A stretch of DNA of 64,000 bases from Alphaproteobacteria bacterium (GCA_965248765.1 CBDFKF010000003.1:653777-717776); one strand, 5' to 3'. Shown: positions 21,717 through 59,403, counted from the stretch's first letter. Translations and numbers: made by a program. The notes: generated from the letters alone by a model not told the origin.

Positions 21717-21956
21717 TCACCTAGCCGTAATCTCATCCGGTCTAGTGAGGTCGGTAGCCCGGTAGAGGACCAGCCCGCCGTGGGATTCGAGGCGCGCGAC
21801 CGCCTCGGCAGCCTTGTCATTCGACTGCCGACCCGTGATGGCGAGGCCAGCGCCCTCACGCGCCAGCGCTTCGGCGATGGCAAAGCCGATGCCCTGACGG
21901 AGTCTCGCCCCGGTGACGAGCGCGTTTTTGCCGGTAAGTATCGAACTCTCAGCCAT
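21717..21956 (-). pseudogene. short-chain dehydrogenase/reductase (SDR) N-terminal fragment (79 aa)
   Basis: Rossmann motif LTGKNALVTGARLRQGIGFAIAEALAREGA. The ORF stops after 79 aa and no continuation exists in any frame. Confidence 0.6.
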
Positions 21957-23752: not shown

Positions 23753-23771
23753 GGTCCTTGACCTGTCTTAG

Positions 23772-25850: not shown

Positions 25851-25894
25851 TACACCCTCTCCCTCGTTCGATCGTTTTTGGCAGTGCGATCAGA

Positions 25895-27553: not shown

Positions 27554-27590
27554 TGCCAGCTCTCTGCTGGTCCGCGCGTTGCGCCGGTCC

Positions 27591-29255: not shown

Positions 29256-29265
29256 CGCCCGTCCC

Positions 29266-32274: not shown

Positions 32275-32277
32275 GTT

Positions 32278-33126: not shown

Positions 33127-34148
33127 CGCGCCTCTCCTTGCAAGCGGATGCGCGGGTTGATGTAGGCGACCAGGAGATCGACCACGATGTTCACGACCAC
33201 GAACATCAAGCCGATCACGAGCACGGTGCCAACGATGGCGTTGAGGTCCTTTTGCAGTATCGCGTAGACGCCGTAGCGCGCTAGGCCCGGCCAATTGAAC
33301 ACGACCTCGACCAGGAAGGCCGAGCCCAGCATGACCGAAAAATCGAGCCCCAGAACCGTGAGCGTCGGGATCATCGCCGGCCTCAGCGCATACTTGAAAG
33401 CGATGGAGCGTTCCGAGAAGTTGAAGGCTCGCGCCATCTCAATGTATTGCCGGCCATAGGTTTCGACCATGTTGGCACGGGTGAGCCGGGCGGCTTGGCC
33501 GAGCCCAGCGAGCGCCAGCGCGATCGCCGGCAGGATCAGGTGCGAAAGCGCATCCCAAAACGCCCTCCCGTCTCCCGCCACCAGGGCGTCAAGCGTATAG
33601 AAGCCGCTGAAGTGCTCGGGCCTGATCATCGGGTCGACAAGTCGGCCCGCCACCGGCAACAGGCCGAGGGTGTGACCGAACACCAGCATCAGGATGATGG
33701 CCCAGACAAAGCTCGGGCTCACCACCCCCAACAGCGCAACGATCCGCGAGGCGTTGTCGATCGGTCCGTCTCGGTAGCGTGCCGCGACCACCCCGAGCGG
33801 GATGCCAAATACGATCATCACCACGCCGGCGGCGATGACGAGTTCCAAGGTCGCGGGCAGAAAATCGGCGATGTTCTGGGATACCGGGCTCTTGTGGAAG
33901 GTCGACTCGCCGAGATCTCCGCGCGACAGCCCCTTTAGGAACTCCCAGTACTGCACTGGGATCGGATCGTTTAGATGCAGTCGGTCGCGATAGAGATCGA
34001 CCATCTCTTGAGACGCCTTGTAGCCCAGTGCGAGCCGTGCCGGATCGCCCGGGATCACCCGCGCGACGACGAAGATCAGGATCGACAGCCCGATCATGAC
34101 CAGGGCGCCCAGGACGAGCCGCCGCCCAAGGAATCGCAGCACGATCAT
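33123..34148 (-). CDS. peptide-type ABC transporter permease (DppB-like)
   Basis: 341 aa. N-terminal MIVLRFLGRRLVLGALVMIGLSILIFVVARVIPGDPA typical of DppB/OppB. Confidence 0.85.
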   Translation of the reverse strand: MIVLRFLGRRLVLGALVMIGLSILIFVVARVIPGDPARLALGYKASQEMVDLYRDRLHLNDPIPVQYWEFLKGLSRGDLGESTFHKSPVSQNIADFLPATLELVIAAGVVMIVFGIPLGVVAARYRDGPIDNASRIVALLGVVSPSFVWAIILMLVFGHTLGLLPVAGRLVDPMIRPEHFSGFYTLDALVAGDGRAFWDALSHLILPAIALALAGLGQAARLTRANMVETYGRQYIEMARAFNFSERSIAFKYALRPAMIPTLTVLGLDFSVMLGSAFLVEVVFNWPGLARYGVYAILQKDLNAIVGTVLVIGLMFVVVNIVVDLLVAYINPRIRLQGEAR

Positions 34149-34234
34149 CGTCTGAACCTAGCGTCAAAAAAAGCAAGTGGCGGCGGCCACCGCTGGGCCG
34201 CCGCCACGTCTAAACCGATCCAACCGATAGGTTT

Positions 34235-35833
34235 TCAGTTGACCTCGGTGAGCCGGAAGTTGAAGTCGGCCCAGATAAAGCCTGTGAGCTTGGCCGGATC
34301 TTCGAAGGGAAGCGTGACGGCGTCGCGCTTCGCATAGACAGCGATCGAATCGAAGGCGAACACGTTGGGCTGTTCCGCGATGATCGCGCGCTGCACTTCC
34401 TTGTACAGATCCTCACGCTTGGCCGCATTGGTCTCCCCCCGCGCCGCTTCGAGCATCGCGTCGACCTTGTCGTTCAGCAGCCACTCCGTCGAGCTCCACA
34501 GGCCCTTGCCGCTCGAGTGGTACAGCTCGTAGAGAAGCGGATCGATGTCCGGCGTCGCCGCGTTGTGGATCACGAACTGGACGTTGCCAGAAGTCTCGAT
34601 CGCCCCGGCGCGCTCGATGAACGCGGGAAAGGTGAGCTCCGTGAGCTCGGCCTTGACGCCGATCTCGGCCAAGTTGGCAGCCACCAGAAGCGCGATCTTC
34701 TGGTGGAGGAAACAGCAAAGGTGCGAAATGACCTCGACCGGCGGCCAGGTATTGGCATCGTATTCCGCGAGTTCGAGTTCTTTCTTCGCCGCCGCCAAAT
34801 CGCGGCTTCCCGGCGTTAGGCCTTTGTCATAGCCCATCATGCCGCCGGGGATCGGGCCTCGAGCGGGGGCGCCGGCGAACAGGCCTTCCTTGATCTTGAT
34901 GATGTCCTGCAGTGCCTCGTAGTCGGTCGCGTACGCGAGCGCTCTACGAATGTGAACATTGTCGGTGGGCGCAAGCTTGGTGTTGATTTTGATATAGCCG
35001 GCGCCGGTCTGCGGCTCGCCTACCGCCGAGATGCCGTCGACCTTGTCGAGCGCGGAGTAGGTCTCGTAGGGCTGCCACATCGACGAGACGTCGTGCTCGC
35101 CGCGCTCCATCAGCGCCCGAAGGGTCGCCGGCTCGAGGCTGTAGCGCATGCGCGCCTCGTCGGGCGATTTGGGGCCGAATGGTAGCCAATATCCGTCGAA
35201 CCGCTTCATGACAGTGAGCTCTTGCTTGTTGTGCGAGATCACCGTGTAAGCGCCCGAGCCGGCGTCGTTGCTCTCCAGATAGGCGCGGCCATAGTCGCCG
35301 AGATCGCCAAAGTCGCCGTCCTTTATGTTAGCCAGCAACAGCTTCTTGTTAATGATTGGCAGTCGGACCAGGGCGGCCAGGAACGGCGCATAGGGCCGCT
35401 CCAGCGTAAACGTCACCGTGTGCGAGTCGGCCGCCTCGGCAGATTTCACCCAGCCCCTGAACAGATGCGAGTAACCGAGCGCGAGGGTGACCATCCGATC
35501 CAGCGAGAACACCACGTCTTCGGATGTCATGGGCGTCCCGTCGTGAAACTTCACGTCGGTCCGCATCTTGAAGGTGTGGACGAGCCCGTCGTCCGAGGAT
35601 GTCCAGCTCTCCGCCACGTGAGGGATGACTTTGCCGCCAGGGCCGACCCACACCAACGTGTCGTAGATATTGGACACCAGGATCAAATCGGCGAAATCGG
35701 TGGCGTGAGCCGGGTCGAACTCGCCGACTGCGGCCTCCTCCATGCTGAAGACGCGCTTGTCCTGCGCCTCAGCGACGGCCAGCGGCAAGGCAACGACCGC
35801 TGCTGCCACCGCGCCAATAATTCGCGATCTCAT
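34235..35833 (-). CDS. ABC transporter periplasmic substrate-binding protein, family 5 (DppA/OppA-like)
   Basis: 532 aa with signal peptide MRSRIIGAVAAAVVALPLAVAEA and family-5 SBP length and composition. Confidence 0.8.
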   Translation of the reverse strand: MRSRIIGAVAAAVVALPLAVAEAQDKRVFSMEEAAVGEFDPAHATDFADLILVSNIYDTLVWVGPGGKVIPHVAESWTSSDDGLVHTFKMRTDVKFHDGTPMTSEDVVFSLDRMVTLALGYSHLFRGWVKSAEAADSHTVTFTLERPYAPFLAALVRLPIINKKLLLANIKDGDFGDLGDYGRAYLESNDAGSGAYTVISHNKQELTVMKRFDGYWLPFGPKSPDEARMRYSLEPATLRALMERGEHDVSSMWQPYETYSALDKVDGISAVGEPQTGAGYIKINTKLAPTDNVHIRRALAYATDYEALQDIIKIKEGLFAGAPARGPIPGGMMGYDKGLTPGSRDLAAAKKELELAEYDANTWPPVEVISHLCCFLHQKIALLVAANLAEIGVKAELTELTFPAFIERAGAIETSGNVQFVIHNAATPDIDPLLYELYHSSGKGLWSSTEWLLNDKVDAMLEAARGETNAAKREDLYKEVQRAIIAEQPNVFAFDSIAVYAKRDAVTLPFEDPAKLTGFIWADFNFRLTEVN

Positions 35834-35949
35834 CTTCGTCCTCCCTTGTGGTTCAACGCTCTTTTTCGCGAGGATACTTGGGCGGGCCGAGTGCCGTCAA
35901 ACTCGACCGCGCCCCGATGGCAAGGAAGCTGTTGCTAGCCCGAGTAGCC

Positions 35950-35975
35950 GCGCACTATGTTTGCTAAATGTGCGC
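35950..35975. promoter_or_regulatory. imperfect inverted repeat gcgcac-N14-gtgcgc in the divergent promoter region between the family-5 SBP gene and the hyuB-hyuA-hyuB operon
   Basis: Read directly from the sequence. It lies ~45 bp upstream of the hyuB ATG at 36018. Confidence 0.3.
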
Positions 35976-36017
35976 GCCAACAATTTCCGGGCGAGTTACC
36001 AACACAGGACGGTAGGG

Positions 36018-37769
36018 ATGCAGCAAGCGGCGAGTACTACCCGCAACAACGGGACAACCGACCACGTCACCCTCGAGATCATCTGGGGCAAGCTGCGTGC
36101 GGCGGCCGACGAGATGGGCGTGGTTCTGGCGCGTTCGAGCATGAGTCCGGTTATCTACGAGGTCTTGGACTTCGCCTGCGGCATTTGCGATGCGCAAGCC
36201 CAGCTCGTCTCCCAGACCAACGGCATCACAGTCTTTACAGGCACCTTCCAGGGTCACGTCCAAACCGTGATCCGCAAGTTCGGCGGCGACATGCAGCCCG
36301 GCGACATCCTCATGGTGAACGACCCGTTCACCGGCGGCACCCATCTGTCGGACGTCGGCATCGTCAAGCCGGTCTTCGTCGACGGTGAGGTCCTCGCGTA
36401 CGCCATTGCCGTCGCGCACTGGACCGAGATCGGCGGCAGCGTGCCGGGCTCGCTGTCGCCCGAAGCCACCGAGATTTTCCACGAAGGCCTGCGCTTCCCC
36501 GGCCTCAAGATCTACCGCGAGGGTGAACCCCAGCAGGATCTGTTCGATCTCATCGCCGCCAACGTCCGCCTGCCAAAGATGACTCTTGGCGACCTCAACG
36601 CCGAGATCGCGGCGGTGAAGATCGCCGATACCCGCCTCCAGGAGATCTTCGGAAAGTATGGTGCTCAGGCCGTGATCGAGAGCTTTGAGCACCTGATGGA
36701 GCAAAGTGAGAAGGTGAGCCGCGCTGCGATCGCGGCATTGCCTGACGGCGTCTACGAAGCCAAAGACCTGATCGACGGCGATGGCTTCAGCGACGAGCAG
36801 ATCCCGGTTCAGGTCGAGGTCCGCATCGCCGGCGACGAGATCACCTTCGATTTCACCGGCACCAGTGCTCAGCGCAAAGGTCCTCTGAACTGCGCCCGTG
36901 GCGCCACCCTTTCGGCCGTCAAGACGGTCTTCAAAGCGCTGGTCGATCCGCAGGCGCCCTCCAACGAGGGATGGTTCCGACCGATCAACGTCGAAGTGCC
37001 GGACGGGACGGTGTTTAGCGCCGAGTACCCCCAGGCGGTCGGCTGGTACTTCGAGATGACGGGGCAGATCTCCGAGCTGGCCTGGAAGGCGCTGGCGCCG
37101 CTCGCGCCAGAGCGCTTCAGCGTTGGCAGCTTCATGAGCCTCTGCGCCACCATCTTCTATGGCACATCGCCCGAAAATGACGAGCAATTCGTCATCGTCG
37201 AGCCACATATGGGTGGCTGGGGCGCGACCCACGACCAGGACGGCGCGAGCGTTCTGATCGGCACCGCCGACGGTGATACCTACAACTATTCGGTGGAATT
37301 GCTGGAGGCGAAGTACCCGGTGCGCTGTCAGCGCTACGCCATGAACGTGGAGGACGGCGCTGGCCCGGGCCGTCATCGCGGTGGCTTCGGCGTGGTGCGG
37401 GAGTACGAGATGCTTGCCGAGAATGTGCATCTCTACGCCAGCCTGGGGCGCTCAGTCGAGCGCCCGTGGGGTCTCGCGGGCGGCGGCCACGGCACCAACA
37501 ATTACCTCGAGGTGGTAAGCAACGGGGATCGCTGGCGCGGCGCGCGCGTTCCGACCACCCAGCTGAAACGTGGCGATTACGTCCGTATCGTTACCGGCGG
37601 CGGCGGTGGCTACGGCATTGCGGCCGAACGGCCGGCTGAGGACGTGGCCGAGGACGTGAGCGACGGTTTCTTGACCGCGGAGCGAGCCCGCGAGCAGTAC
37701 CAGGTCGTGCTCGGGACCGACGGTGCCGTCGATCGGAACGCCACCGCGGCGCTCCGTCAAGCCGGCTAG
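36018..37769 (+). CDS. hyuB: HyuB paralog 4 (start at internal Met MQQAASTTRNN of ORF 35742..37769)
   Basis: DHVTLEIIWGKL...NDPFTGGTHLSD...VTGGGGGYG. About 75% identical by eye to paralog 5 at 39825. Confidence 0.9.
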   Translation: MQQAASTTRNNGTTDHVTLEIIWGKLRAAADEMGVVLARSSMSPVIYEVLDFACGICDAQAQLVSQTNGITVFTGTFQGHVQTVIRKFGGDMQPGDILMVNDPFTGGTHLSDVGIVKPVFVDGEVLAYAIAVAHWTEIGGSVPGSLSPEATEIFHEGLRFPGLKIYREGEPQQDLFDLIAANVRLPKMTLGDLNAEIAAVKIADTRLQEIFGKYGAQAVIESFEHLMEQSEKVSRAAIAALPDGVYEAKDLIDGDGFSDEQIPVQVEVRIAGDEITFDFTGTSAQRKGPLNCARGATLSAVKTVFKALVDPQAPSNEGWFRPINVEVPDGTVFSAEYPQAVGWYFEMTGQISELAWKALAPLAPERFSVGSFMSLCATIFYGTSPENDEQFVIVEPHMGGWGATHDQDGASVLIGTADGDTYNYSVELLEAKYPVRCQRYAMNVEDGAGPGRHRGGFGVVREYEMLAENVHLYASLGRSVERPWGLAGGGHGTNNYLEVVSNGDRWRGARVPTTQLKRGDYVRIVTGGGGGYGIAAERPAEDVAEDVSDGFLTAERAREQYQVVLGTDGAVDRNATAALRQAG

Positions 37770-37774
37770 GCGGC

Positions 37775-39820
37775 ATGGGCCGCTTGGCCACCGATATCGG
37801 TGGCACGTTCACCGACCTCGTTCATTTCGATGAGCAAAGTGGCGAGCTGGCCGTCGCCAAGTCCCTCAGTACGCCAAGCGATCTCACCCAGGGCGTGCTC
37901 GATACCATACGCCTGTCGGAGATAGAGCCGGCGGACGTCACCTTCTTCGTTCATGGCGGGACCACCGTCATCAACGCCATCACCGAGCGCAAGGGGGTCA
38001 AGACGGCCCTGGTGACGACCGCCGGGTTCCGCGATGTGCTCGAGATTGCCCGCGGTAATCGGCCCGACATGTACAATCTCCGGTTCAAGAAACCCGTGGC
38101 CTTCGTGCCCCGTCGCATGCGCTATGAGGTGCGCGAACGCATGGACGTCGGCGGCAACGAGATCGAGCCGCTTAGGACCGAAGACCTCGATCCGGTGATC
38201 GAAAGCTGCAAGAGCCAGGATGTCGAGGCTGTCGCCATACAGTTCTTGCATAGCTATGCGGCCCCGGAGCACGAGGCCGCGTGCGCCGCATACCTGCGCC
38301 AGCGTTTGCCGGGTGTCGCAATCACCGCCTCGCACGAAATCACGCGCGAATGGCGCGAGTATGAGCGCGCCAATACCGTCGTCCTCAATGCCTACGTGCA
38401 ACCGATCGTGCAGCGCTATTTCAGCAAGCTCGAGAAGGCGCTCAAAGAACACGGCTTGAATTGCCCCTACACGGCAATGCAGTCCAACGGCGGAACGACG
38501 ACGTTCGCCTGGGCCAAGGAGCATCCGATAACGTTGATCGAGTCCGGCCCTGCGGCCGGTGTCAACGGCGCGGCATTGGTCGGCGAGCTGTGCGCCCACC
38601 CCAATGTCATCTACCTCGATGTGGGCGGCACGACGGTGAAGTGCTCGCTGATCGAGGCCGGCGAGCCGAAGGTCACTACCGATTACAAGCTTGAGTGGAC
38701 GCGGCTCAATCCCGGCTATCCGGTGCGGGTGCCGGTTACCGATCTGGTTGAGATCGGCGCCGGGGGTGGCTCGATCGCCTGGTTCGATGCCGCCGGGTCC
38801 CTGCGCGTCGGGCCACAGAGCGCCGGTGCCGACCCCGGCCCTGCGTGTTACGGCCGCGGCGGCGAGGCGCCTACGGTCACCGATGCGAAGCTGCTGACCG
38901 GTGTCATCAACCCCGGCTACTTCGCAGGCGGACAGTTCGATCTCGATCTCGATCGGGCGGGAAAGGCCATGCAGACGATCGCGGACGGGCTCGGCTGCGG
39001 TGTCGAGGAGGCGGCGAATGCGGTGATCCGCTTGGTCGAAGCCAATATGAACGATGCGCTGAAGCTGGTGTCGATTCAGCGTGGCCACGATCCGCGCGAT
39101 TTCATTCTGGTCGCGGCGGGCGGCGGCGGTCCGATGCACGCCGCCCCACTCGGCCGCGAGCTCGGCGTCAAGGAAATCGTTATTCCCCGCTACCCCGGCA
39201 ACTTCTCGGCGTGGGGGATGCTGGCAACCGAGCCGCGACGGGACTTCGCCCTGACGGCGCTGACCCGGGCCGAGGACGTGACGATGGAGGCGATCCGGGC
39301 GCGTTTTGACGAGCTGGAAGGCGAGGCTACAACCTATTTCCGGTCGGATGAGGGGCTTGCCGCCAGCGAACTCTCGTTCAACCGCCAGATCGATCTCCGC
39401 TATCACGGGCAGGAGCACTCGGTAACGGTGCCCCTCGCCGAGTCCGCCTCGGACCTTGCGACCCTCTTGGAGGACTTCCATGCCGCGCACGTTAGGGCCT
39501 ACACCTTCAAGCTGACCGATACGCCGGTCGAATTCGTCACCTTCCGGCTGACAGCAACGGCAGCCGTCCCGAGACCGACTGTCAACCCGATCGGCATCGA
39601 TGGCCGCTCGGCCGACGCAGCGCGCAAAGGTAAGCGTACGGCCGATTTTGGCGAGGACGGACCGCGCGAGGCCGAGGTCTTCGAACGAGATCTGTTGCCA
39701 CCAGGCTTCACCGCTGACGGGCCACTGGTCGTAGAGGAAGCCTCCTCCACCGCGACAGTCCATCCCGGCCAACGTCTGCGCGTCGACGATCTCGGCTTCC
39801 TGCGGATCAGCGAGATCTGA
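37775..39820 (+). CDS. hyuA: HyuA 2
   Basis: 681 aa. MGRLATDIGGTFTDLV... LDVGGTTVKCSL. Confidence 0.9.
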   Translation: MGRLATDIGGTFTDLVHFDEQSGELAVAKSLSTPSDLTQGVLDTIRLSEIEPADVTFFVHGGTTVINAITERKGVKTALVTTAGFRDVLEIARGNRPDMYNLRFKKPVAFVPRRMRYEVRERMDVGGNEIEPLRTEDLDPVIESCKSQDVEAVAIQFLHSYAAPEHEAACAAYLRQRLPGVAITASHEITREWREYERANTVVLNAYVQPIVQRYFSKLEKALKEHGLNCPYTAMQSNGGTTTFAWAKEHPITLIESGPAAGVNGAALVGELCAHPNVIYLDVGGTTVKCSLIEAGEPKVTTDYKLEWTRLNPGYPVRVPVTDLVEIGAGGGSIAWFDAAGSLRVGPQSAGADPGPACYGRGGEAPTVTDAKLLTGVINPGYFAGGQFDLDLDRAGKAMQTIADGLGCGVEEAANAVIRLVEANMNDALKLVSIQRGHDPRDFILVAAGGGGPMHAAPLGRELGVKEIVIPRYPGNFSAWGMLATEPRRDFALTALTRAEDVTMEAIRARFDELEGEATTYFRSDEGLAASELSFNRQIDLRYHGQEHSVTVPLAESASDLATLLEDFHAAHVRAYTFKLTDTPVEFVTFRLTATAAVPRPTVNPIGIDGRSADAARKGKRTADFGEDGPREAEVFERDLLPPGFTADGPLVVEEASSTATVHPGQRLRVDDLGFLRISEI

Positions 39821-39824
39821 TCGG

Positions 39825-41582
39825 ATGGCGGAAGAGGCGCCGCGCTCTGACACCGACGTGACGGGCGCGAGCGACCACGTCACCCTCGAGATCATCTGGG
39901 GCAAGTTGAACGCGGCCGCTGATGAGATGGCCATCATCCTCGCGCGCTCGAGCATGAGCCCGGTCGTCTATGAGGTGCTCGACTTCGCCTGCGGCATCTG
40001 CGACGCCAACGCCCAGCTCTTATCGCAGGCGAACGGCATTACGGCGTTCACCGGGACCTTCCAGGGGCATGTGCAGACGGTGATCGGCAAATGCGGCGAA
40101 TCGCTGTCCGAGGGTGACATCTACCTCGTCAACGACCCCTTCACCGGCGGCACGCATCTCAGCGACGTCGGTGTGGTGAAGCCGATCTTCGCTGGCGGTG
40201 AGCTGGTTGCCTTCGCCATCGCGGTATCCCACTGGACCGAGCTCGGCGGCACCGTGCTCGGGTCGCTGTCACCGGCGGCGACGGAGATCTATCACGAGGG
40301 TCTGCGCTTCCCGGCACTGAGGATTCACCGCGACAATCAACCGCTGGAGGACATGTACGCGGTCATCGCCGCTAATGTGCGCATGCCCAAGGAGACGCTC
40401 GGCGACATCAACGCCTCGGTAGCCTCGGTCAACGTCGCCGAGGCCCGCATCCAGGAACTGTTCAAGCGCTATGGGCGCGAGGCGGTGGTACGGACTTTCG
40501 CTCACCTCATGGGCCAGAGCGAGAAAGTGAGTCGGGCGACCATCGCGGCGCTGCCCGATGGCGTGTACGAAGCCGAAGACTGGATCGACGGCACGTCGTT
40601 CTCGCAGGAACGGGTTCCCATCCGCATCGCCGTGGGCATCGCCGGCGAGGACATCACCTTCGACTTCACGGGCTCGAGCCCGATGCAAAAGGGTCCCTAC
40701 AACTGCTCGCGCGGGGCCCTCCTGTCAGCGGTGAAGACCGTATTCAAGGCCATGGTTGGGCCGCATGCGCCGTCGAACGAGGGCTGGTTCCGGGCGCTGC
40801 ACGTGATCGTGCCGGAGGGCACGGTGTTCAGCGCCACCTACCCGCATGCGGTCGGGTGGTGCATCGAGATCATGGAGCAGGCACAAGAACTGGCGTGGAA
40901 GGCGCTCGCGCCGCTCGCGCCGGATCGCTTCAGCGTTGGCAACTACATGAGTATCAGCGCCACGTTCGTATGCGGCAACGAGCCGACCACCGGGAACCCC
41001 TTCGTCATCATCGAGCCACACATTGGCGGCTGGGGCGCCACCGATTCGTGGGACGGCGCGAGCGCTCTGATCGCCCCGATCGACGGCGATACCTACAACT
41101 ACTCGATCGAGTTGCTGGAAGCGAAGTACCCGGTGCGCTGCCGCCGCTACGCCCTAAATGTCGAGGGAGGAGTTGGCCCGGGCCGCTTCCGTGGCGGCTA
41201 CGGGGTTGTGCGAGAATACGAGATTCTCGCTGACGATGTGATCTTCTACGCCGGCGTCGGTCACTCGATCGAGCGCCCCTGGGGGCTCGAGGGTGGCGGA
41301 CAAGGCAGTGTCAATTACGTCGAGGTGCACTCCAATGGCGGCAGCTGGCGCGGCGCACGCGTGCGCGAGACCCCGATCGGGCGCGGCGACCTGATTCGCA
41401 TCGTTACCGGTGGTGGTGGCGGCCACGGCGACCCGCGACAGCGGTCCGAACAGGCGGTTGCCGACGACGTGGTGGACGGCTACTTGACTGCCGAGGCGGC
41501 ACGCGCGGCCTATCATGTGTCGATCGAAGCCGACGGGACCATCGACGCCGAGGCAACCGCCGCGCTCCGTCGCGGCCCCTGA
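39825..41582 (+). CDS. hyuB: HyuB paralog 5
   Basis: 585 aa. Same subfamily as paralog 4. C-terminal VTGGGGGHGDP. Confidence 0.9.
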   Translation: MAEEAPRSDTDVTGASDHVTLEIIWGKLNAAADEMAIILARSSMSPVVYEVLDFACGICDANAQLLSQANGITAFTGTFQGHVQTVIGKCGESLSEGDIYLVNDPFTGGTHLSDVGVVKPIFAGGELVAFAIAVSHWTELGGTVLGSLSPAATEIYHEGLRFPALRIHRDNQPLEDMYAVIAANVRMPKETLGDINASVASVNVAEARIQELFKRYGREAVVRTFAHLMGQSEKVSRATIAALPDGVYEAEDWIDGTSFSQERVPIRIAVGIAGEDITFDFTGSSPMQKGPYNCSRGALLSAVKTVFKAMVGPHAPSNEGWFRALHVIVPEGTVFSATYPHAVGWCIEIMEQAQELAWKALAPLAPDRFSVGNYMSISATFVCGNEPTTGNPFVIIEPHIGGWGATDSWDGASALIAPIDGDTYNYSIELLEAKYPVRCRRYALNVEGGVGPGRFRGGYGVVREYEILADDVIFYAGVGHSIERPWGLEGGGQGSVNYVEVHSNGGSWRGARVRETPIGRGDLIRIVTGGGGGHGDPRQRSEQAVADDVVDGYLTAEAARAAYHVSIEADGTIDAEATAALRRGP

Positions 41583-41609
41583 ATAATCCAGGTTAAATCG
41601 CTAAAGTCG

Positions 41610-41629
41610 GGGTGAGCCTATGCTCACCC
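41610..41629 (+). promoter_or_regulatory. intergenic hairpin gggtgagc-ctat-gctcaccc between HyuB paralog 5 and the MetE-like gene
   Basis: Perfect 8-bp stem with a 4-nt loop, read directly. There is no downstream U-run, so it is not a classical terminator. Confidence 0.35.
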
Positions 41630-41654
41630 GAACCAACTTCCGGGAGGACTCGCC

Positions 41655-42827
41655 ATGCAACGCAGCGACCAGCGCATTCTGACCAGCCATGTCGGCAGCC
41701 TTATCCGCAGCCCCAAGCTCGCAAAGGCTCTGATCGAGAGAGAGCAGGGCTTGGGCGGCGACGGTGCTTCGCTAACGAAGGCGGTGGCAAGCGATATGGA
41801 CCACGTCGTCGCGAAGCAGGCGGAGACCGGTGTCGATGTTCCCAACGACGGTGAGTTGCCGCGGATCGGCTTCTCGACCTACGTCCAGAACCGGATGTCG
41901 GGGTTCGGCGGAGAATCGCCGCGCAATCAGCTTGTCGACTTCACCACCTACCCCGATTTCCAGGAAATCTGGCTGCACCGCTACCACACCACGTCCCAGG
42001 ACAGCGCCAAGCTGTGGAATGCACCGCAGGCGGTCGCCGATCTTCACTACGACGACGAAATGAGCGAAGTGAAGGCTGAGTGCGACGCCTTCGCAGGCGC
42101 GCTCGAACGCCAGCCACACAAGTTTGCTGAGTCCTTCATGACTGCCGTCTCGCCGGGCAACCTCACGTGCACGCTGCTGAACGCGTATTACCCCAACGAA
42201 GAGGACTACCTCATGGCGGCGGCACGCGAGTTGAAGAAGGAGTACGACTACATCCACAGTCGCGGCTTCCTGCTTCAGGTGGACGCGCCGGATCTCGCCC
42301 TCGAGCGTCAGCTCTACTTCCAAAAGCGCCCGATGGAGGACTTCCTCGAAGGGGTCAAGCGCCAGATCGCCGCGATCAACCACGCCGTGTCCGATATCCC
42401 GCCCGAGCGCGTGCGGCTGCACCTGTGCTGGGGAAATTACGAAGGGCCGCATGACGGCGACGTGGCGATGGAGGATATCCTGCCGCTGATCTACGAGGCC
42501 AATGTCGGGGCGGTGAGCATCCCCTTCGCCAACCCCCGCCACCAGCACGAGTACAAGGCGATAAAGAAGTACCCGCTGCCCGATGGCATGATCCTGATTC
42601 CGGGCGTGATCGACGTGACGACCAACTACCTCGAACACCCGGAGGTCGTGGCGAACCGCATTTGCGAGGCAGTCGAGGCCATGGGCGACAAGACACGCGT
42701 CATTGCCGGAACCGACTGCGGCTTCTCCACGTTCACCGATTACACGATGGTGTCGGAGCAGGTGTGCTGGGCCAAGTTCGCAGCGCTGCGCGAGGGCGCG
42801 GAGATCGCGACCAAACGCCTTTGGTAG
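41655..42827 (+). CDS. cobalamin-independent methionine synthase (MetE) C-terminal-domain-like protein, putative zinc-dependent methyltransferase fold
   Basis: 390 aa. RLHLCWGNYEG (His-x-Cys) and GTDCGFSTF (Cys) correspond to MetE/UROD-fold zinc ligand positions. The assignment is by recollection of the family. Confidence 0.6.
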   Translation: MQRSDQRILTSHVGSLIRSPKLAKALIEREQGLGGDGASLTKAVASDMDHVVAKQAETGVDVPNDGELPRIGFSTYVQNRMSGFGGESPRNQLVDFTTYPDFQEIWLHRYHTTSQDSAKLWNAPQAVADLHYDDEMSEVKAECDAFAGALERQPHKFAESFMTAVSPGNLTCTLLNAYYPNEEDYLMAAARELKKEYDYIHSRGFLLQVDAPDLALERQLYFQKRPMEDFLEGVKRQIAAINHAVSDIPPERVRLHLCWGNYEGPHDGDVAMEDILPLIYEANVGAVSIPFANPRHQHEYKAIKKYPLPDGMILIPGVIDVTTNYLEHPEVVANRICEAVEAMGDKTRVIAGTDCGFSTFTDYTMVSEQVCWAKFAALREGAEIATKRLW

Positions 42828-42911
42828 TGAGCGGCTTGTAGGCCACGGCCGGCGGCCCAAGGGCCGGCTGTGGCCGTTTTCTCCTGGCTTCGCGCTAGCG
42901 GGACGACGCGG

Positions 42912-44849
42912 TCATGCGGCGTCGGCGGCGAATTCCTCCATGCCGAGCCCGTTGAGGGTACCGGCTGTCGGCGTGCCCGTGTCTTTGTTCCAACCCTGGT
43001 AGCGGTAGTACTCATCGAGCATGGCCGGGAGATACGGCTCGATGCCCTCCTTTTCGGCCGGGCCGGTCTTGGTGATCTCCAAGAACCGGGGCGAGATATC
43101 GAGCTCGTCCTCGCGCTTGAAACCACGCCGGGCGTAGACCAAGCGCATCAAGTTGGCGACGCGCGCCCCGACCTCGAAGGCCTCCTTCTCGTCGAAGTCC
43201 TCCCAGCCGATGGTGTGGCGAAGGCTGTGGGTCGTGAACTTAATGGCACTCGGCACGCCCATGACGCCGAAGGAGCAGATGCCGAGTGTGTCCCAGAACC
43301 ATTTCATGAGCTGGGTGCGGTAGACACCCTCGACCTTGTCGACGGCCTCATCGAGGTTGCCCGCGATGCCCGGGGTGACCTTATCGTAGCCGAGGTCGCG
43401 CCGCAGGAACGTATCGGTTCCCCTCCCCTGGGTGGAGGCTCCGTAGCCGGACGTTATCTCGCAGAACCAGGCGCTCCACGCCGCGCGGTGGTCGTGCATG
43501 ACCGCGCCGCCGCCCTTCATATCGAGGATCTTGTTGCGGAGCTGTTCGGTGATGCCCTTCTCGGCGCCGACATTCTCGACCCACTTCTTGGGGCCGTCGA
43601 CGAACTTGGCACCGAAGCCCTCGCGGGCGACGGCCTGGTTGATCACCTCCATCGCCGATTCCCAGTTGCCCCAGGTGAAGTCGAGGCCGCCGGTATCCTG
43701 CTGGTTGAGGAGGCCTTCGCTATAGGCCTCGAAGGTGGCGCCCAGCATCGGGGCGAACTGGCCCATTTCGATGCCTAGGGAGTCGTACACATCGTTCATG
43801 ATGACGACGGCCATGGGGTCATCGACACCCATGATCGAGCCTGAGCCCTCAAGCGGCTCGCCGCCGCCACACTTGCTGCCGGTGAACCCTTTGTAGGGTC
43901 CATCCGTGATCTCCACGTCGTACGCGCACGAGATCTTGCAGTTGTACGAGGGCTGGGGCGTGATCTTCCACTTCGCGCAGGCCTCGACGTACTTGTTGGC
44001 GAACTCAACGCCCCAATCGGGGTCGGTCATGTTCTTGCCGATCACCCGCTTGTGCGCGCCGAAGGTCTGGTGGTAGTGGCGGGTGTTGCCTGCGTCCTGC
44101 ATCGCCTCGGCGACGGTGCGGTCAGCAGGGTTCTCGCTGCCGGGGAAGAGCTCCTTCTCCCAGTCGGTTGCGTTTTCGACCATCTTCGGCGGGTCGAACA
44201 GCGGCACCTTGCCGGTGCCCCGCACCGCGATAGCCTTGAGGTTTTTGGCCCCCATCGAGCTTCCCAGACTGCCTTTCCCGGCACCGTGGTTGCGGTCGTT
44301 CTTGATCATCGCTCCGGCGATGAGCGCCTCGCCGGCGGGACCGATGCAGGCGACGCTGATCTCCTTGTCGTCGCCGAGCTCGATCTTGATGCGGCGCTCG
44401 GTCTCGCGGGTGTCCTGGCCCCACACCTGGCCGGCGTCGCGAAACTCCACGTTGTCGTCGTCGATCCACAGATAGGTGGGTTTCGAGGCCTTGCCGGTGA
44501 AGATAATGCCCTGGTGCCCGGCGTGCTTGAGGCGGGCGGCCCAGAAGCCGTGGGTATGGCCCACAGCCGCCGAGTATGGCGTGATCTGGTGGTAGCCGAC
44601 GATGGTGACGTCGGAGGAGTTGACGGCGGGAGTCCCCGTCAGGGGACCGTTCATGAAGATGAGCGGCACATCCGGATCAGTGGACTTGCCCAGCGGCGGC
44701 GCCTCACGCAGCAGATACCACAGGCCCAGGCCAATGCCGCCGACATACTTGCGCAGTATCTCTTCGTCGGGGAGCGGTTCCCGAGTGACGGTCTCGTTGG
44801 TGAGATCCACACGCAAGATGTGCGGGCAGTATCCTCCGCGAATGGCCAT
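42912..44849 (-). CDS. aldehyde:ferredoxin oxidoreductase (AOR) family tungsten/molybdenum-pterin enzyme
   Basis: 645 aa. N-terminal ILRVDLTNE...YVGGIGLGLWYL, typical of the AOR N-domain. Two pterin-binding D-x-x-G-x-(D/E/C) motifs: YDSLGIE and DTLGIC, the Cys of the second being a 4Fe-4S ligand position. NCKISC Cys pair. Confidence 0.7.
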   Translation of the reverse strand: MAIRGGYCPHILRVDLTNETVTREPLPDEEILRKYVGGIGLGLWYLLREAPPLGKSTDPDVPLIFMNGPLTGTPAVNSSDVTIVGYHQITPYSAAVGHTHGFWAARLKHAGHQGIIFTGKASKPTYLWIDDDNVEFRDAGQVWGQDTRETERRIKIELGDDKEISVACIGPAGEALIAGAMIKNDRNHGAGKGSLGSSMGAKNLKAIAVRGTGKVPLFDPPKMVENATDWEKELFPGSENPADRTVAEAMQDAGNTRHYHQTFGAHKRVIGKNMTDPDWGVEFANKYVEACAKWKITPQPSYNCKISCAYDVEITDGPYKGFTGSKCGGGEPLEGSGSIMGVDDPMAVVIMNDVYDSLGIEMGQFAPMLGATFEAYSEGLLNQQDTGGLDFTWGNWESAMEVINQAVAREGFGAKFVDGPKKWVENVGAEKGITEQLRNKILDMKGGGAVMHDHRAAWSAWFCEITSGYGASTQGRGTDTFLRRDLGYDKVTPGIAGNLDEAVDKVEGVYRTQLMKWFWDTLGICSFGVMGVPSAIKFTTHSLRHTIGWEDFDEKEAFEVGARVANLMRLVYARRGFKREDELDISPRFLEITKTGPAEKEGIEPYLPAMLDEYYRYQGWNKDTGTPTAGTLNGLGMEEFAADAA

Positions 44850-44905
44850 GGTTTTCCTCCCATCTCACAGCTGCCACCAGCAGCATCGATAATTCGGTGA
44901 ATTAA

Positions 44906-45287
44906 CCTAGCCGAGGACCATCCGGCAGTCCAATCCACAGGAGAGCGGGGGGCAGCGCGGTCCGTAACCAGGGAATGCCGGAGACATAGGCGGGGACGTA
45001 GAGCACTCTCGCGGCGAGGAAGACCTGCGCGCCAATCGCAGTCTAGATATCGGCTCGCCCTGTCACCTGGGCCATGAGTACCACGGCAGCGAACAACGGC
45101 AAGCTCTCCAGCAAATTCTTGTGGGCGCGCTCTAAACGGCCTGCGGTTACGGCGAGCGGATCGGTGTATCACGCGGGCCCACCGACCACGGGTTCCCGGT
45201 TTGGCGTTTGGCGAACGTGGTCACGAGGCCGGTCTTCGCGAGCGCCAGCAAGACCGTTCCGAACAGCATCCAAAGATCGATCGTCAT
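44906..45287 (-). pseudogene. MAPEG-family membrane protein gene with a frameshift and an internal stop
   Basis: N-terminus MTIDLWMLFGTVLLALAKTGLVTTFAKRQ (in ORF 45147..45410). Continues in another frame as RLERAHKNLLESLPLFAAVVLMAQVTGRADI, then stop, then AQVFLAARVLYVPAYVSGIPWLRTALPPALLWIGL. The R.H.N..E..P.F and ARV.Y motifs are typical of MAPEG. Confidence 0.55.
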
Positions 45288-45388
45288 CGTCGCCTCCCAG
45301 CGCTGGCTCGCTCCGCCGCCCCGCGACCTCGCGGCGACATCGCCCTCGCCTCCGACGGCACTGCGGCCAGCCGGCGCCGGGCCGAGCG

Positions 45389-45895
45389 CTACTTTTGGAT
45401 CACTCCGCAAGCGATGCGCGGCCCAACTCCCGGGTTCTCGCCGCGGGTGTCAGGCTTGTCATGAATGATGATGGCTGAGCCATCGCCGTCGAAGACACCG
45501 TCCATACCATCGCCAAGCGTCACGTTGGCATTCAGCACTTCCGCCTTCACTCGACCGTCGGCCGCGGCGTGGATATTCGGCATATCGCCGGCATGACGAC
45601 CTTTTGGGTTCTTGATGCCGTGGGCCTTGTCCGTGGGGTCGAAGTGCCCTCCGGCAGCCTTGAAGTCCGGCGTACAAGCGCCTCTTTCGTGGATGTGAAA
45701 TCCGTGGCCGCCCGGCGGTAGCCCCCGCAAATCGACCAGCACAAAGACGCCGGCGGGCGTCTCGGTCAGCGTCACGGTGCCGAGACCCTCGCCATCCGCG
45801 TTCTTCATCTCCGCCATCGCCTCCGCGGCGATGGCACCCGTCGATCCGAACGCCGAGATGGCGAGCGCCAGAATCGCGATTCGCAACGACAACAT
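45389..45895 (-). CDS. sodC: periplasmic Cu/Zn superoxide dismutase
   Basis: Signal peptide MLSLRIAILALAISAFG. Metal-ligand motifs GFHIHERGAC, GGHFDP, GDMPN, IIHDKPD and the disulfide Cys near the C-terminus. Confidence 0.85.
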   Translation of the reverse strand: MLSLRIAILALAISAFGSTGAIAAEAMAEMKNADGEGLGTVTLTETPAGVFVLVDLRGLPPGGHGFHIHERGACTPDFKAAGGHFDPTDKAHGIKNPKGRHAGDMPNIHAAADGRVKAEVLNANVTLGDGMDGVFDGDGSAIIIHDKPDTRGENPGVGPRIACGVIQK

Positions 45896-45963: not shown

Positions 45964-46977
45964 TCAGGCCGTGACGACGATCTTGCCTCTCTGCTGGTTC
46001 GATTCCATGTGGCGATGCGCTTCGGCGATCCGGTTGAGCGGGAAGGCGCTGTCGATGATGACCTTGAGCGCGCCGGAGCTGACCTTGTCCCGGATATAGG
46101 CAAAGCCGGCGGCACGCCGATCGGGCATGCGCATCGTGTCGAACACGCTATGGCATTTGAAGTGAAGACGCTTGCTCAGGATCGGAAAGTCGACCGGGCC
46201 GGTGTCAAGGTTGCCGTAATTGATGATCTTGCCACCGGGCTGGGCAGCGGCGATCAGATCGTTACAGAACTTCCCGCCGATCGGATCGTAGCAGACGGTG
46301 AAGCCGCGCCCACCGGTGAAGGTCATGACTTGCTCAGCCAAGTCCTCCTCGTCGGTCACCACCACGCAATCGGCGCCAGCCTCGCGCAGGAAATCGCGCT
46401 TGGCCGCGGTGCGGGTTTGGCCGATCACCGTGGCGCCTTCCGCCTTGGCGATCTGCAGCGCGCCGCCCGCAGTGCTGCTCGATCCCGCCGTGACCAACAC
46501 GATGTCGTTGCTGGTGACGCCAGCGAAGTCGACAAGCCCGCCCCATGCGGTGAGATATTGGCACCAGATCGCCGCGCCCTCCTCGGCGCTGAGGTTGGCG
46601 GGGTTGTGGGCGACGGTGTCGGCGGGGACGATCGCACTCTCGCCGTAGACGCCGTATTTCACGAGCGATTCTTGAGTCCAGTTGCCCCACTTATCCCACG
46701 TCAGGAACGGCACCGCGCTAACGAAATCGCCGATCGAGAAGCCACTCACTCCGGCGCCGATCGCATCGATCGTGCCGCTCGCCTCGAGGCCGATGCGCGA
46801 GGGGAGGACCGGGTCGGCGGCATAGCGCCCCTCGCGGAGCATGATTTCGGCGCGGTTGAGCCCTATCGCTTGGACCTTGAGGCGGACCTGGCCCTCGCCC
46901 GGCTCGACCAGCGGCTCGTCGAATAGCCGGAGAACCTCCGGCGCACCCGTCTCCTCGAAGCGCACGATCTTGACCAT
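45964..46977 (-). CDS. zinc-independent MDR-family NAD(P)H quinone oxidoreductase-like dehydrogenase (start at internal Met MVKIVRFEETG of ORF 45964..47538)
   Basis: 337 aa with Qor-like N-terminal GroES-like and Rossmann domains (VLVTAGSSSTAGGALQIAK). The upstream 187 codons of the ORF are GC-rich read-through. Confidence 0.75.
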   Translation of the reverse strand: MVKIVRFEETGAPEVLRLFDEPLVEPGEGQVRLKVQAIGLNRAEIMLREGRYAADPVLPSRIGLEASGTIDAIGAGVSGFSIGDFVSAVPFLTWDKWGNWTQESLVKYGVYGESAIVPADTVAHNPANLSAEEGAAIWCQYLTAWGGLVDFAGVTSNDIVLVTAGSSSTAGGALQIAKAEGATVIGQTRTAAKRDFLREAGADCVVVTDEEDLAEQVMTFTGGRGFTVCYDPIGGKFCNDLIAAAQPGGKIINYGNLDTGPVDFPILSKRLHFKCHSVFDTMRMPDRRAAGFAYIRDKVSSGALKVIIDSAFPLNRIAEAHRHMESNQQRGKIVVTA

Positions 46978-47251
46978 CTCTCCCTCCGATTGCTTGGTCG
47001 TCACGCAGCCTCGGCGAGCCGCCCGACCGGAACGAGGGCCCTGGCGACTCGGGGATCCGTGACCCGATGACCATAACGCAAGCGCTCGGTCATGGCCGCT
47101 GGTACCGTCGACCACAATCACGCCGACCGCAAATCCGCGGGTAGTCTCGCCTCGCAGGGCACGATCTTGGATCGTAGACAATTGGCACCATCGATGGTTG
47201 CCTGTCGGCGAGCAGCTGATGGGTTGTACAGGGCGAGTTGGGGAGGCCTGA

Positions 47252-48808
47252 ATGCGAATCGGCATCGATGTCGGCGGCACCAACACCGATGCAGCGTTGA
47301 TGGACGGCCTCAAGGTCCTCGCGTCCCACAAGACCCCGACTACCGCCGATGTCAGCACCGGCATCACGCACGCCCTGGAAGCGGTGTTGCGCGACTCCGC
47401 AGCGACGGCCGCCGCCATCGAGGCGGTGATGATCGGCACCACGCACTTCACCAACGCCTTCGTCGAGCGCAAGCGGCTGTTGCCGGTGGGCGCGATCCGG
47501 TTGGCGCTGCCGGCAGCGAGCGGATTGCCGCCACTCACCGACTGGCCGACCGATCTCGCTGATGCCGTGCGCGGTCATATCGCTATGGTCGAAGGCGGCA
47601 ACGAGTACGACGGCGCCGAGATCTCGCCTCTGGACGAGGGCGCGGTACGCACCGCCGCCGAAGACATGCGCACCGAGGGCATCCGGACCGTCGCGGTCTC
47701 TTCGATCTTCTCTCCGGTCAATGCGGGGATGGAGCAGCGCGCGGGCGAGATCGTCCGCGAGGTGCTGCCCGAGGCTGCGGTTTCGCTGTCCAACGAGATC
47801 GGCCGCATCGGCCTGTTGGAGCGCGAGAACGCGGCGATCATGAACGCGAGCCTTGCCGAGCTGGCCGAGCGCGTCGTCAGCTCGTTCCGCGAGGCGCTTG
47901 CCGGGCTTGGTATCGAGGCGCCGTTCTACATCAGTCAAAACGATGGCACGCTGATGAGCGCGGCCTTCGTCGAGCGCTATCCGGTGCTGACCTTTGCTTC
48001 GGGCCCCACCAACTCGATGCGCGGTGCCGCCTTCCTCGCTGGCGCCAAGGACGCGATGGTCGTCGATATCGGCGGCACCACAACCGATGTCGGGATGCTG
48101 ATCAACGGCTTCCCGCGCGAATCGGCGGTCGCGGTGGATATCGGCGGTGTGCGCACCAACTTCCGCATGCCCGACGTGCTGGCGATCGGCCTCGGCGGCG
48201 GCAGCCGGGTGCGCCAGAACGGCGCGCTCACGGTGGGCCCGGACTCGGTGGGCTACGAGCTGACTAAGGAGGCGCTCGTGTTCGGCGGTTCTACAATCAC
48301 CGCGACCGACATCGCCGTTGCGGCGGGTAATGCGGAGATTGGCGAGCGGGCGCGTGTCAGCAATCTGGGCGAGGATCTCGTCGAGCAAGCGGCCGCGATG
48401 ATCCACGACATGCTGGACGAGGCAGTCGACCGGATGAAGACCGCCGCTGGTGACCTGCCGGTGGTGCTCGTCGGCGGCGGCGCGATCCTGATCTCGCGCG
48501 ACATCAAGGGCGCCTCGGAGGTGATCGTTCCTGACCATGCCGGTGTGGCCAACGCGATTGGGGCTGCCATCGCTCAGGCCGGAGGCGAGGTCGACAAGGT
48601 CTACGCCTACGATCAGCTCGGCCGTGAAGGCGCTATCGCGGCAGCTCGTGAGGAAGCGAGCGAGCGCGCCGTCGAAGCGGGCGCCGATCCGGCCACCGTC
48701 GACATCGTGGACATAGAGGAGGTGCCGCTCGCCTATATGCCCGGCGGTTCGTGCCGTGTCCGGGTCAAGGCCGTGGGCGACCTCAGGTACCGCGGGATCG
48801 CGACGTGA
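47252..48808 (+). CDS. short (518 aa) hydantoinase/oxoprolinase-A-like ASKHA ATPase
   Basis: MRIGIDVGGTNTDAALM... and second half VDIGGTTTDVGML. Lacks about 170 aa relative to the full-length HyuA proteins of this window. Confidence 0.8.
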   Translation: MRIGIDVGGTNTDAALMDGLKVLASHKTPTTADVSTGITHALEAVLRDSAATAAAIEAVMIGTTHFTNAFVERKRLLPVGAIRLALPAASGLPPLTDWPTDLADAVRGHIAMVEGGNEYDGAEISPLDEGAVRTAAEDMRTEGIRTVAVSSIFSPVNAGMEQRAGEIVREVLPEAAVSLSNEIGRIGLLERENAAIMNASLAELAERVVSSFREALAGLGIEAPFYISQNDGTLMSAAFVERYPVLTFASGPTNSMRGAAFLAGAKDAMVVDIGGTTTDVGMLINGFPRESAVAVDIGGVRTNFRMPDVLAIGLGGGSRVRQNGALTVGPDSVGYELTKEALVFGGSTITATDIAVAAGNAEIGERARVSNLGEDLVEQAAAMIHDMLDEAVDRMKTAAGDLPVVLVGGGAILISRDIKGASEVIVPDHAGVANAIGAAIAQAGGEVDKVYAYDQLGREGAIAAAREEASERAVEAGADPATVDIVDIEEVPLAYMPGGSCRVRVKAVGDLRYRGIAT

Positions 48809-49922: not shown

Positions 49923-49999
<77 letters not shown>

Positions 50000-59402: not shown

Positions 59403-59403
59403 C

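Follow-up and report, generated by a model that had tools for sequence, protein, structure and literature searches.

Probably independent units, not one pathway: a hyuB-hyuA-hyuB operon and a convergent AOR-family gene in a plastic region of an uncultured alphaproteobacterium

Introduction

Does an oxidoreductase gene that lies beside a hydantoinase-type operon belong to the pathway of that operon, or is it only a neighbour? The question is raised by a 64,000-nt stretch of DNA of an alphaproteobacterium (GCA_965248765.1, CBDFKF010000003.1:653777-717776; hereafter the window, from whose first letter all coordinates are counted unless a locus is named). Its region 35834-44849, the subject of this study, holds five open reading frames (ORFs): hyuB4, hyuA2 and hyuB5, the gene of a 390-aa MetE-fold zinc protein (MetE-like below) and, convergent with these, a gene of the aldehyde:ferredoxin oxidoreductase (AOR) family. 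The usual view of AOR/WOR enzymes is that they contain tungsten, are sensitive to oxygen and belong to anaerobes. An earlier note, made from this sequence alone, had assigned the five families, and the Pfam domains expected of them are all found (Hydantoinase_B; Hydant_A_N, Hydantoinase_A and Hydant_A_C; Meth_synt_2; AFOR_N and AFOR_C). The same note saw in the AOR gene a hint that the hydantoinase (Hyu) module produces an aldehyde or carboxylate intermediate, and so of a functional coupling between the two.

Our analysis leads us to a different answer. We consider it probable that the 9-kb stretch consists of independent units juxtaposed in a plastic region of an uncultured aerobic alphaproteobacterium, rich in insertion sequences (IS) and in Hyu genes, and that it is not one pathway module. 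Judged by comparison with orthologous loci, the hyuBAB/MetE-like unit is a lineage-specific elaboration of a common hyuBA/Dpp lactamase-type module, while the AOR would be transcribed on its own and act as a pterin oxidoreductase of one subunit (Class I-like). It belongs to an uncharacterised clade, distinct from the already-known aerobic clade of BmWOR.

Transcription units and orthologous loci

The three hyu genes are closely packed, with 5 nt between hyuB4 and hyuA2 and 4 nt between hyuA2 and hyuB5, so that of the two 5-bp gaps noted earlier the first stands and the second is one nucleotide shorter; the spacers before and after the MetE-like gene measure 72 and 84 nt, where 73 and 85 bp had been given. 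The 35834 boundary of the region does take in the genes, but hyuB4 itself begins only at ATG 36018, a start called identically in the same-species contig L001 (the open frame reaches back to 35742), and what precedes it, 35834-36017, is divergent intergenic sequence. Both the MetE-like gene, behind its 72-nt spacer, and the AOR gene carry a ribosome-binding site GGGAGGA of their own. The spacer between these two convergent genes folds with a minimum free energy of -37.1 kcal/mol (42826-42895, z -1.9), and the hairpin within it is predicted from its sequence to terminate the plus-strand unit. A second, small hairpin, GGGTGAGC-CTAT-GCTCACCC, lies at 41609-41628 in the hyuB5/MetE-like spacer behind an unusually AT-rich stretch, and may serve the MetE-like gene as a promoter or in stabilising its RNA.

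Orthologues of hyuA2, which form a very large family at about 70% identity, reveal what this unit looks like elsewhere. At 77% identity (L216), hyuB-hyuA is followed by a Dpp-type ABC transporter; at 75% (L217), an ORF without assignment stands between hyuB and hyuA; and at 71% (L218-L221), hyuB and hyuA are 4 nt apart. None of these loci carries a second hyuB 3' of hyuA, a MetE-like gene or an AOR gene. The intervening ORF of L217 (6349-7983 in that locus, 544 aa) has no Pfam match and no similarity to HyuB. The importer encoded divergently from hyuB4 in the window is 59-75% identical, protein by protein, to the transporter directly after hyuB-hyuA in L216, and because an orthologous importer thus accompanies an orthologous pair we regard hyuB-hyuA plus Dpp importer as a conserved unit. 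The closest cultured relatives (52%; plasmids of Aminobacter and Pararhizobium) likewise have hyuB-hyuA and then an ABC transporter. HyuB4 is 80% identical to the HyuB of L216 and HyuB5 66%, with HyuB5 branching outside the HyuB4/L216 pair. By this sequence evidence hyuB4 is the positional orthologue of hyuB in plain hyuB-hyuA pairs and hyuB5 is specific to this lineage. We suggest that the lineage added the second beta-subunit gene and the MetE-like gene to the common pair, the terminator closing the unit.

Outside the window, the same-species assemblies L001-L003 are the only ones in which the hyuBAB-MetE-like-AOR neighbourhood was found; the earlier note had proposed to look for it in related genomes and had named a lack of conservation as a refutation of its reading. 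Since its conservation ends at the species, functional coupling of the AOR to the Hyu module is not supported; the terminator between them, the orthologous hyuA2 loci (71-77%) that lack an AOR gene and the AOR relatives (67-88%) that lie beside other genes all speak against the coupling once proposed.

Neighbourhoods of the AOR and MetE-like genes

To see the AOR gene in its other contexts, we draw on a metagenome scan with a motif of its clade, which yielded 115 loci, 100 of them in-clade; these fall into 54 groups at 90% AOR identity, 33 of which are informative (at least 4 kb of flank). No neighbour is universal among the 54 groups, and the AOR gene appears as a solitary gene in variable contexts. 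The families met most often nearby are CoA-transferase III (10 groups), TctC binding protein (8), Zn-dependent alcohol dehydrogenase (Zn-ADH; 7, within 6 kb of the AOR gene and directly upstream of it in L201), acyl-CoA dehydrogenase (7), and AMP-ligase and SDR (6 each), ahead of Hyu (4) and MetE-like (2). Of three homologue clusters, one at 87% identity sits beside genes for a cold-shock protein, APH and TauD and has a formamidase gene about 1 kb downstream; one at 67% adjoins genes for an EBDH-like molybdoenzyme with MobB and for PTE; and another at 67% (the locus of P0010) has ureA-ureB-ureC directly upstream on the same strand, across a 139-nt gap. A FmdA_AmdA formamidase gene just downstream of the AOR gene is a feature of the closest relatives (L084, L088-L090, L127).

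The groups with Hyu genes differ among themselves. In the L004/L115 and L188 groups the AOR gene is followed by a convergent Peripla_BP_6 gene and then by a fused 1,293-aa HyuA-HyuB, and in L142/L162 a divergent hyuB lies 246 nt upstream of the AOR gene. The fused protein, of 5-oxoprolinase-like architecture (L004 6427-10305; also L115, L188 and L203), is encoded on the AOR strand by the second gene after the AOR gene, and genes for enoyl-CoA hydratase and acyl-CoA dehydrogenase stand upstream. In L142 and L162 (3963-8898 in AOR-oriented coordinates of L162) the gene of a 46%-identical AOR has behind it, in the same orientation, genes for a TupB-like oxyanion ABC permease and an ABC ATPase and two dimethylformamidase-like (DMFA2_C) ORFs; the permease (NF038017 249 bits, TupB model 180 bits) is the only hint of a tungsten/molybdenum transporter, and it comes from a single organism.

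These data bear on whether hyuBAB, MetE-like and AOR genes could together form one pathway, in which the AOR would oxidise or reduce an aldehyde or carboxylate made by the ATP-dependent hydrolase/carboxylase. Adjacency in the window and in the same-species assemblies would fit such a scheme, as would the Hyu genes found near the AOR clade in 4 of the 33 informative groups, in three further arrangements. The MetE-like and AOR genes are, however, convergent with a terminator between them, orthologous hyuBA loci lack both, and the closest AOR relatives have no Hyu genes; Hyu genes are no commoner near the AOR than generic catabolic families, and at about 13 Hyu genes per 64 kb nearly any gene here lies near one. 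We hold the single pathway to be very unlikely.

A narrower alternative would pair only the MetE-like protein with the AOR, as partners kept together through rearrangements, the zinc protein for instance handling a thiol or alkyl group of the AOR substrate or product. The two genes are indeed adjacent in two arrangements: in the window they converge, and in L088-L090, whose MetE-like protein is 85% and whose AOR is 88% identical and which also have a formamidase gene, they diverge. Against this stand three loci of the same AOR group (at least 90% identity; L084, L085, L127) that have no MetE-like gene, the restriction of the pairing to 2 of 54 groups, and the size of the MetE-like family, with 7,837 matches at E < 1e-10. 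The four other close MetE-like relatives have no AOR gene nearby: that at 83% lies beside a PIN toxin gene and PhyH dioxygenases, that at 80% has transposases all round, that at 71% adjoins a GMC oxidoreductase and a binding-protein gene, and that at 59% a gluconolactonase and a CoA-transferase, so that the context differs in each of the five relatives (59-85%). Such a pair is also very unlikely. Because Hyu and MetE-like paralogues are abundant in these genomes, we rate a functional link of the AOR to either of them, taken singly, at about the same low level as the single pathway, and return to independent units as the preferred explanation.

Plasticity of the region

How little adjacency means here follows from how freely the region changes, for same-species assemblies already differ in its structure. 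The window holds about 13 Hyu genes (three hyuB-hyuA-hyuB arrangements, one A-B pair and one hyuB pseudogene) together with IS5-type and IS21 transposases. The assembly L002 breaks inside hyuB4 at about 37403, leaving 184 aa, and its sequence (17450-21938) runs into hemY/HEM4/hemC; only hyuA2-hyuB5 and the MetE-like gene stay intact in that strain. In L001 (1-4866), the tRNA gene that occupies 49926-49999 on the minus strand of the window is flanked by a phage-type integrase, IS21, a TPR gene and a hyuB fragment matching window 4055-5495, and looks like an integration hot spot. The pathway question thus has a mainly negative answer, one that counsels caution in inferring links from adjacency in IS-rich, paralogue-dense regions.

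Signs of decay are spread over the first part of the window, where 2301-3812, 4719-6606, 7595-8434, 11663-13923 and 14720-16756 contain IS5-type/IS21 transposases as well as a hyuB with a frameshift and a gene like those of OYE/2,4-dienoyl-CoA reductase that is split. By its sequence, the genome appears IS-rich and decaying.

The AOR protein

The AOR has both domains of its family. Its Pfam scores are 202.7 bits (AFOR_N) and 180.4 bits (AFOR_C), the best match of solved structure is P. furiosus AOR (1aor, E 8e-65), and an AlphaFold model of high confidence (pLDDT 94.2) superimposes on AOR structures (1aor, 9mqx, 9g7j) with Foldseek TM scores of 0.85-0.92 at 28-29% identity. Both pterin-binding motifs reported in the earlier note are present, DSLGIE at 356-361 and DTLGIC at 520-525, with D356, G359, D520 and C525 invariant in 110 homologues and G523 in 109 of them. 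With the AORs in the strict sense (1aor; C. autoethanogenum 9g7j; WOR 9mqx; A. aromaticum AorB 8c0z) the protein shares the three-domain fold with its pair of Pfam domains, the two D-x-x-G-(L/I)-x motifs, all but one of the four cluster cysteines, the second-shell residue Glu313 and, probably, Thr243. It differs from them in its low identity, in a serine in place of the first cluster cysteine, in an additional conserved cysteine, and in having neither a ferredoxin gene nor AorA/AorC-type genes nearby.

The residues around the active site depart from the canonical set in several places. The second-shell residues of AOR are Thr243, Glu313, Tyr427 and His448 (PMC12096430). Of the catalytic Glu/His and Cys ligands, whose lack the earlier note would have taken as a refutation, Glu313 is kept, as E331 in 109 of 110 sequences; His448 is not, aligning with variable residues next to an invariant D479; and the canonical C-x2-C-x3-C...C set of [4Fe-4S] ligands is broken, C304, C308 and C525 being retained and P. 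furiosus C288 replaced by Ser301. A further cysteine, Cys327, sits in a 2-residue insertion relative to AORs in the strict sense, which gives the pattern S301, C304, C308, C327, E331, H452, C525. Thr243 corresponds to T/S256 in a phmmer alignment but is shifted in a MAFFT alignment. Tyr427 is replaced by His452, as in WOR5, and the 110 sequences show little or no variation at H452, D453 and R455; Glu311 and Tyr312 are not conserved, and R76, N93 and R182 have become D/N80, H98 and H188.

BamB (class II benzoyl-CoA reductase) and E. coli YdhV have the same AOR-family fold (TM about 0.83) and likewise miss several second-shell residues. Their Cys metal ligand (BamB C322, YdhV C336) is Leu, Met or Thr at position 333 here by alignment with E. 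coli YdhV, which rules out a ligand of that type, and Glu313 is kept here and not in YdhV (PMC12096430).

These replacements invite the suspicion that the AOR homologue has lost its normal redox function and is a decaying or repurposed protein of a pseudogene-rich genome: C288 has become Ser, conservation fails at E311, Y312 and H448, pterin-contact residues are altered, other residues stand in place of R76, N93 and R182, and pseudogenes are common in the window. The ORF is, however, intact, its model shows the complete AOR fold at high confidence, and four conserved cysteines remain if C327 is counted. Strong conservation extends across phyla, with the motif Asp and Gly, Cys525, E331, H452, D453 and R455 invariant or nearly so in the 110 sequences, and the L088 homologue is more alike in protein (88%) than in DNA (85%). 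Loss of function is most improbable, and we continue to treat the AOR as an enzyme with a role of its own.

What that role might be is suggested by its surroundings. The neighbours of the AOR gene are sodC, a probable MAPEG pseudogene, a Zn-ADH gene and the MetE-like gene, with no co-encoded partner subunit, and the protein fits Class I (large-subunit-only) WOR as defined in PMC13328260, an assignment made from sequence. The earlier note proposed to look for a co-localised ferredoxin and for tungstate or molybdate transporters and pterin-cofactor genes. The classical CxxCxxCxxxC motif is absent from the window and from the 100 clade loci (regular-expression search, which non-standard spacings would escape), and the 64-kb window contains no tungstate/molybdate transport or cofactor genes (tup, mod, moa, moe). 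Riboswitches for the molybdenum or tungsten cofactor (Moco/Wco), or other such RNA elements, gave no hit at the gathering threshold in the whole window and none at E <= 1 in 35400-45500. The likeliest role that we can propose for the AOR is to turn aldehydes into acids by oxidation, as part of alcohol/aldehyde/acid catabolism, for which the upstream Zn-ADH would be a plausible source of aldehyde. MAPEG-family membrane-protein fragments with in-frame stops, probably a pseudogene, occupy about 44900-45290 on the minus strand between sodC and the AOR gene.

The AOR clade

The change of cysteines defines a clade. In the 110 full-length AOR homologues of an unbiased homologue search, Ser301 is present without exception and Cys327 in 108. 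Among 161 AOR homologues taken from fetched loci, S301 and C327 occur together in each of the 83 full-length loci of at least 44% identity, whereas those below 40% all show Cys301 and lack Cys327. Its nearest sisters (37-38%) carry Cys301 and, at position 327, Ser, Ala or Thr, but have His98, His100 and His188 in common with the clade. In a neighbour-joining tree the Ser301/Cys327 set is monophyletic (84 tips including the query, no exceptions), and these nearest Cys301 sequences are its sister. In the AOR model, strands 310-313 and 323-326 are positioned as if in a hairpin, an arrangement of secondary structure that would bring residue 327 next to Cys308, and we infer that Cys327 probably took over as the fourth [4Fe-4S] ligand. 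A literature search for Ser ligation in AORs found nothing relevant. The perfectly correlated loss of one cysteine to Ser and gain of another offers a natural experiment on re-ligating the AOR Fe-S relay.

The named members of the clade are all metagenome-assembled genomes (MAGs), from Alphaproteobacteria, Dehalococcoidia/SAR202, Chloroflexi, Tectimicrobiota, SAR324 and Nitrospinota, with some Tara sequences. No member occurs in the plasmid collection, where the best match is 30.5% identical, and in a genome-collection scan nearly all of the 80 loci listed are canonical anaerobe AORs at about 30% identity, which served as outgroup; L004 is the only clade member among the matches listed there. 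Because sodC lies upstream on the AOR strand in the window and genes of the oxygen-dependent enzymes TauD and PhyH occur in the loci of relatives, the hosts of the clade are, on this gene content, most likely aerobes. The earlier description of an AOR in an alphaproteobacterium as unusual was overstated, given an air-active AOR of an obligate aerobe (PMC9424855), AOR-family genes on Azospirillum plasmids and the spread of the present clade through MAGs of largely aerobic lineages. The air-active enzyme is BmWOR (WOR clade 83) of Brevibacillus massiliensis; like it and Haloferax WOR83 (9q1t), which come from aerobes, the AOR studied here is a lone large subunit encoded without an adjacent partner gene, in a host that is most likely aerobic (PMC9424855, PMC13328260). 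It matches BmWOR at E 6e-40, against 8e-65 for P. furiosus AOR, which places it in a separate clade.

The wider interest of these observations lies in the metabolism of oxic habitats. To our knowledge, BmWOR of clade 83 is the only aerobic AOR/WOR example that has been characterised. The clade described here is a second one, apart from clade 83, and it abounds in MAGs and metagenomes of Alphaproteobacteria, SAR202, SAR324 and Tectimicrobiota, among them contigs from ocean water. If the clade is active, pterin-dependent and possibly tungsten-dependent aldehyde chemistry would reach into oxic marine heterotrophy. A bolder idea, which we offer as a long shot, sees in the clade widespread single-subunit pterin (tungsten or molybdenum) oxidoreductases of uncultured aerobic lineages whose rewired [4Fe-4S] ligands may be an adaptation to oxygen and which may work with hydrolases of small or cyclic amides. 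The cooperation with amide hydrolases comes to mind because Hyu, formamidase, dimethylformamidase-like and urease genes each adjoin different clade members; one possibility is that the AOR acts on aldehydes set free from amide compounds, or oxidises the aldehydic C-H of formamides. Each of these four families is present in only 1-4 groups, so that we reject a general amide-hydrolase theme and keep it as speculation.

Several observations weigh against our preferred account, in which the 9-kb stretch brings together independent units and the AOR stands apart. The Hyu genes near the AOR clade make some link to amide catabolism possible. The divergent MetE-like/AOR adjacency in L088-L090 would be hard to obtain from the convergent one by a single inversion. 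Metagenome contigs are short, which makes absent neighbours weak evidence. For the ligand swap, finally, the basis is a single evolutionary event together with the geometry of secondary structure.

The hyuB4-hyuA2-hyuB5 proteins

The Hyu proteins belong to the CapAB/ATP-dependent hydantoinase/5-oxoprolinase family: they are subunits of HyuA and HyuB type, with the ATP motifs in the former and residues in the latter that are candidates for the metal site. HyuA2 has the ATP motifs DIGGTFTD (at 7), DVGGT (282) and GADPGP (351), as defined in PMC8453981. The candidate metal residues D51, H109 and H134 of HyuB4, and D53, H111 and H136 of HyuB5, are spaced by 58 and 25 residues like D41/H99/H124 of CapB, in a comparison of spacing made without direct CapB alignment; the second Asp of the CapB site, D101, would have its counterpart in D112 of HyuB4 and D114 of HyuB5, one residue beyond the CapB spacing. 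The best NCBIfam matches are CapA and CapB, at 512, 295 and 257 bits. These scores are far under the equivalog cut-off of 1000 and keep the proteins out of the caprolactamase equivalogs; by that criterion caprolactam is not the substrate.

By analogy with caprolactamase (PMC8453981), HyuA2 would bind ATP and activate the amide, which the metal-containing HyuB would then hydrolyse. The hyuB4-hyuA2 product would accordingly be an ATP-dependent hydrolase of cyclic amides of the lactam or hydantoin type, and its substrate probably enters the cell through the Dpp-type ABC importer whose genes diverge from hyuB4. Where the window differs from CapAB is in having two different B genes around a single A gene. 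The two B proteins are related as the earlier note described at the level of DNA (74.8% identity, given as about 75%), the proteins themselves being 67% identical. The caprolactamase tetramer has the order A-B-B-A, with two B subunits as its core (PMC8453981), and for this reason a mixed core of HyuB4 and HyuB5 is conceivable; alternatively, the two may give a shared A subunit two specificities. A literature search for a two-HyuB enzyme found nothing relevant, and the hyuB-hyuA-hyuB arrangement is absent from the approximately 20 other Hyu loci fetched.

The arrangement occurs three times in the window, at 22076-29291 (minus strand, as B-B-A-B), at 36018-41582 (plus) and at 57564-63361 (minus). 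The B paralogues are 64-67% identical in the first of these and only 29% in the third.

The MetE-fold zinc protein

The zinc motifs described in the earlier note, HxC and a further Cys in the 390-aa protein, are present as H256 and C258 and as the pair D354-C355. In aligned MetE-like homologues H256, H266, D269, H296, H298, D320, E327, H328 and D354 are invariant, and C258, C355 and E299 are invariant or nearly so. The AlphaFold model (pLDDT 88.5) finds its best Foldseek matches in 3rpd and the C-terminal barrel of MetE (1xdj), at TM scores of about 0.7-0.8, a structural match to UROD being more distant. The protein thus resembles short B12-independent methionine synthases (3rpd, 1ypx, YxjG/MesA-D-type) and the MetE C-terminal barrel in its single (beta/alpha)8 barrel (TMt 0.81 to 3rpd) and its HxC + C zinc ligands. 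It differs from those synthases in its identity of only 12-20% and in lacking a clear match for the MetE Glu ligand, at whose position stands a conserved N-P-R-H-x-H-E segment. A methionine-synthase equivalog is ruled out: the best NCBIfam match, short methionine synthases, scores 77 bits, far under the cut-off of 406, and the single 390-aa barrel is not preceded by the N-terminal folate-binding barrel of MetE. Our best guess, by analogy, is a zinc-dependent alkyl or thiol transferase.

Features of the window

The features of the region and its flanks are collected in Table 1. The divergent intergenic region also contains, on its minus strand, a promoter-like site at 35900-35871, by consensus match only.

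Table 1. Features in and around region 35834-44849 of the window
Feature	Position	Strand	Basis or remark
Dpp/Opp-type ABC importer	30297-35833	-	Pfam: SBP_bac_5 at 34235-35833, two permeases, two ATPases
Divergent intergenic region, importer operon/hyuB4, 184 nt	35834-36017		Sequence
hyuB4, HyuB/CapB-type beta subunit, 583 aa	36018-37769	+	Hydantoinase_B, E 1.7e-172
hyuA2, HyuA/CapA-type ATP-binding alpha subunit, 681 aa	37775-39820	+	Hydant_A_N, Hydantoinase_A, Hydant_A_C
hyuB5, second paralogous beta subunit, 585 aa	39825-41582	+	Hydantoinase_B, E 4.6e-158
Single-barrel MetE-fold zinc protein, 390 aa	41655-42827	+	Meth_synt_2, 34.8 bits (cut-off 21)
Intrinsic-terminator-like hairpin, 13-bp stem then GTTTTCTCC	42841-42883	+	Within the 84-nt convergent spacer
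AOR/WOR-family pterin oxidoreductase, 645 aa	42912-44849	-	AFOR_N, E 6.8e-60; AFOR_C, E 8.1e-53
sodC, periplasmic Cu/Zn superoxide dismutase	45389-45895	-	Sod_Cu, E 5.5e-38; also a gene call in L002
Zn-dependent alcohol dehydrogenase	45964-46986	-	ADH_N, ADH_zinc_N; 1.1 kb upstream of the AOR gene

Beyond the Zn-ADH gene, and divergent from the strand of Zn-ADH, sodC and AOR, 47252-49893 (plus strand) pairs a gene for a short HyuA-like protein (518 aa) with one for a DUF917/S-Me-THD protein.

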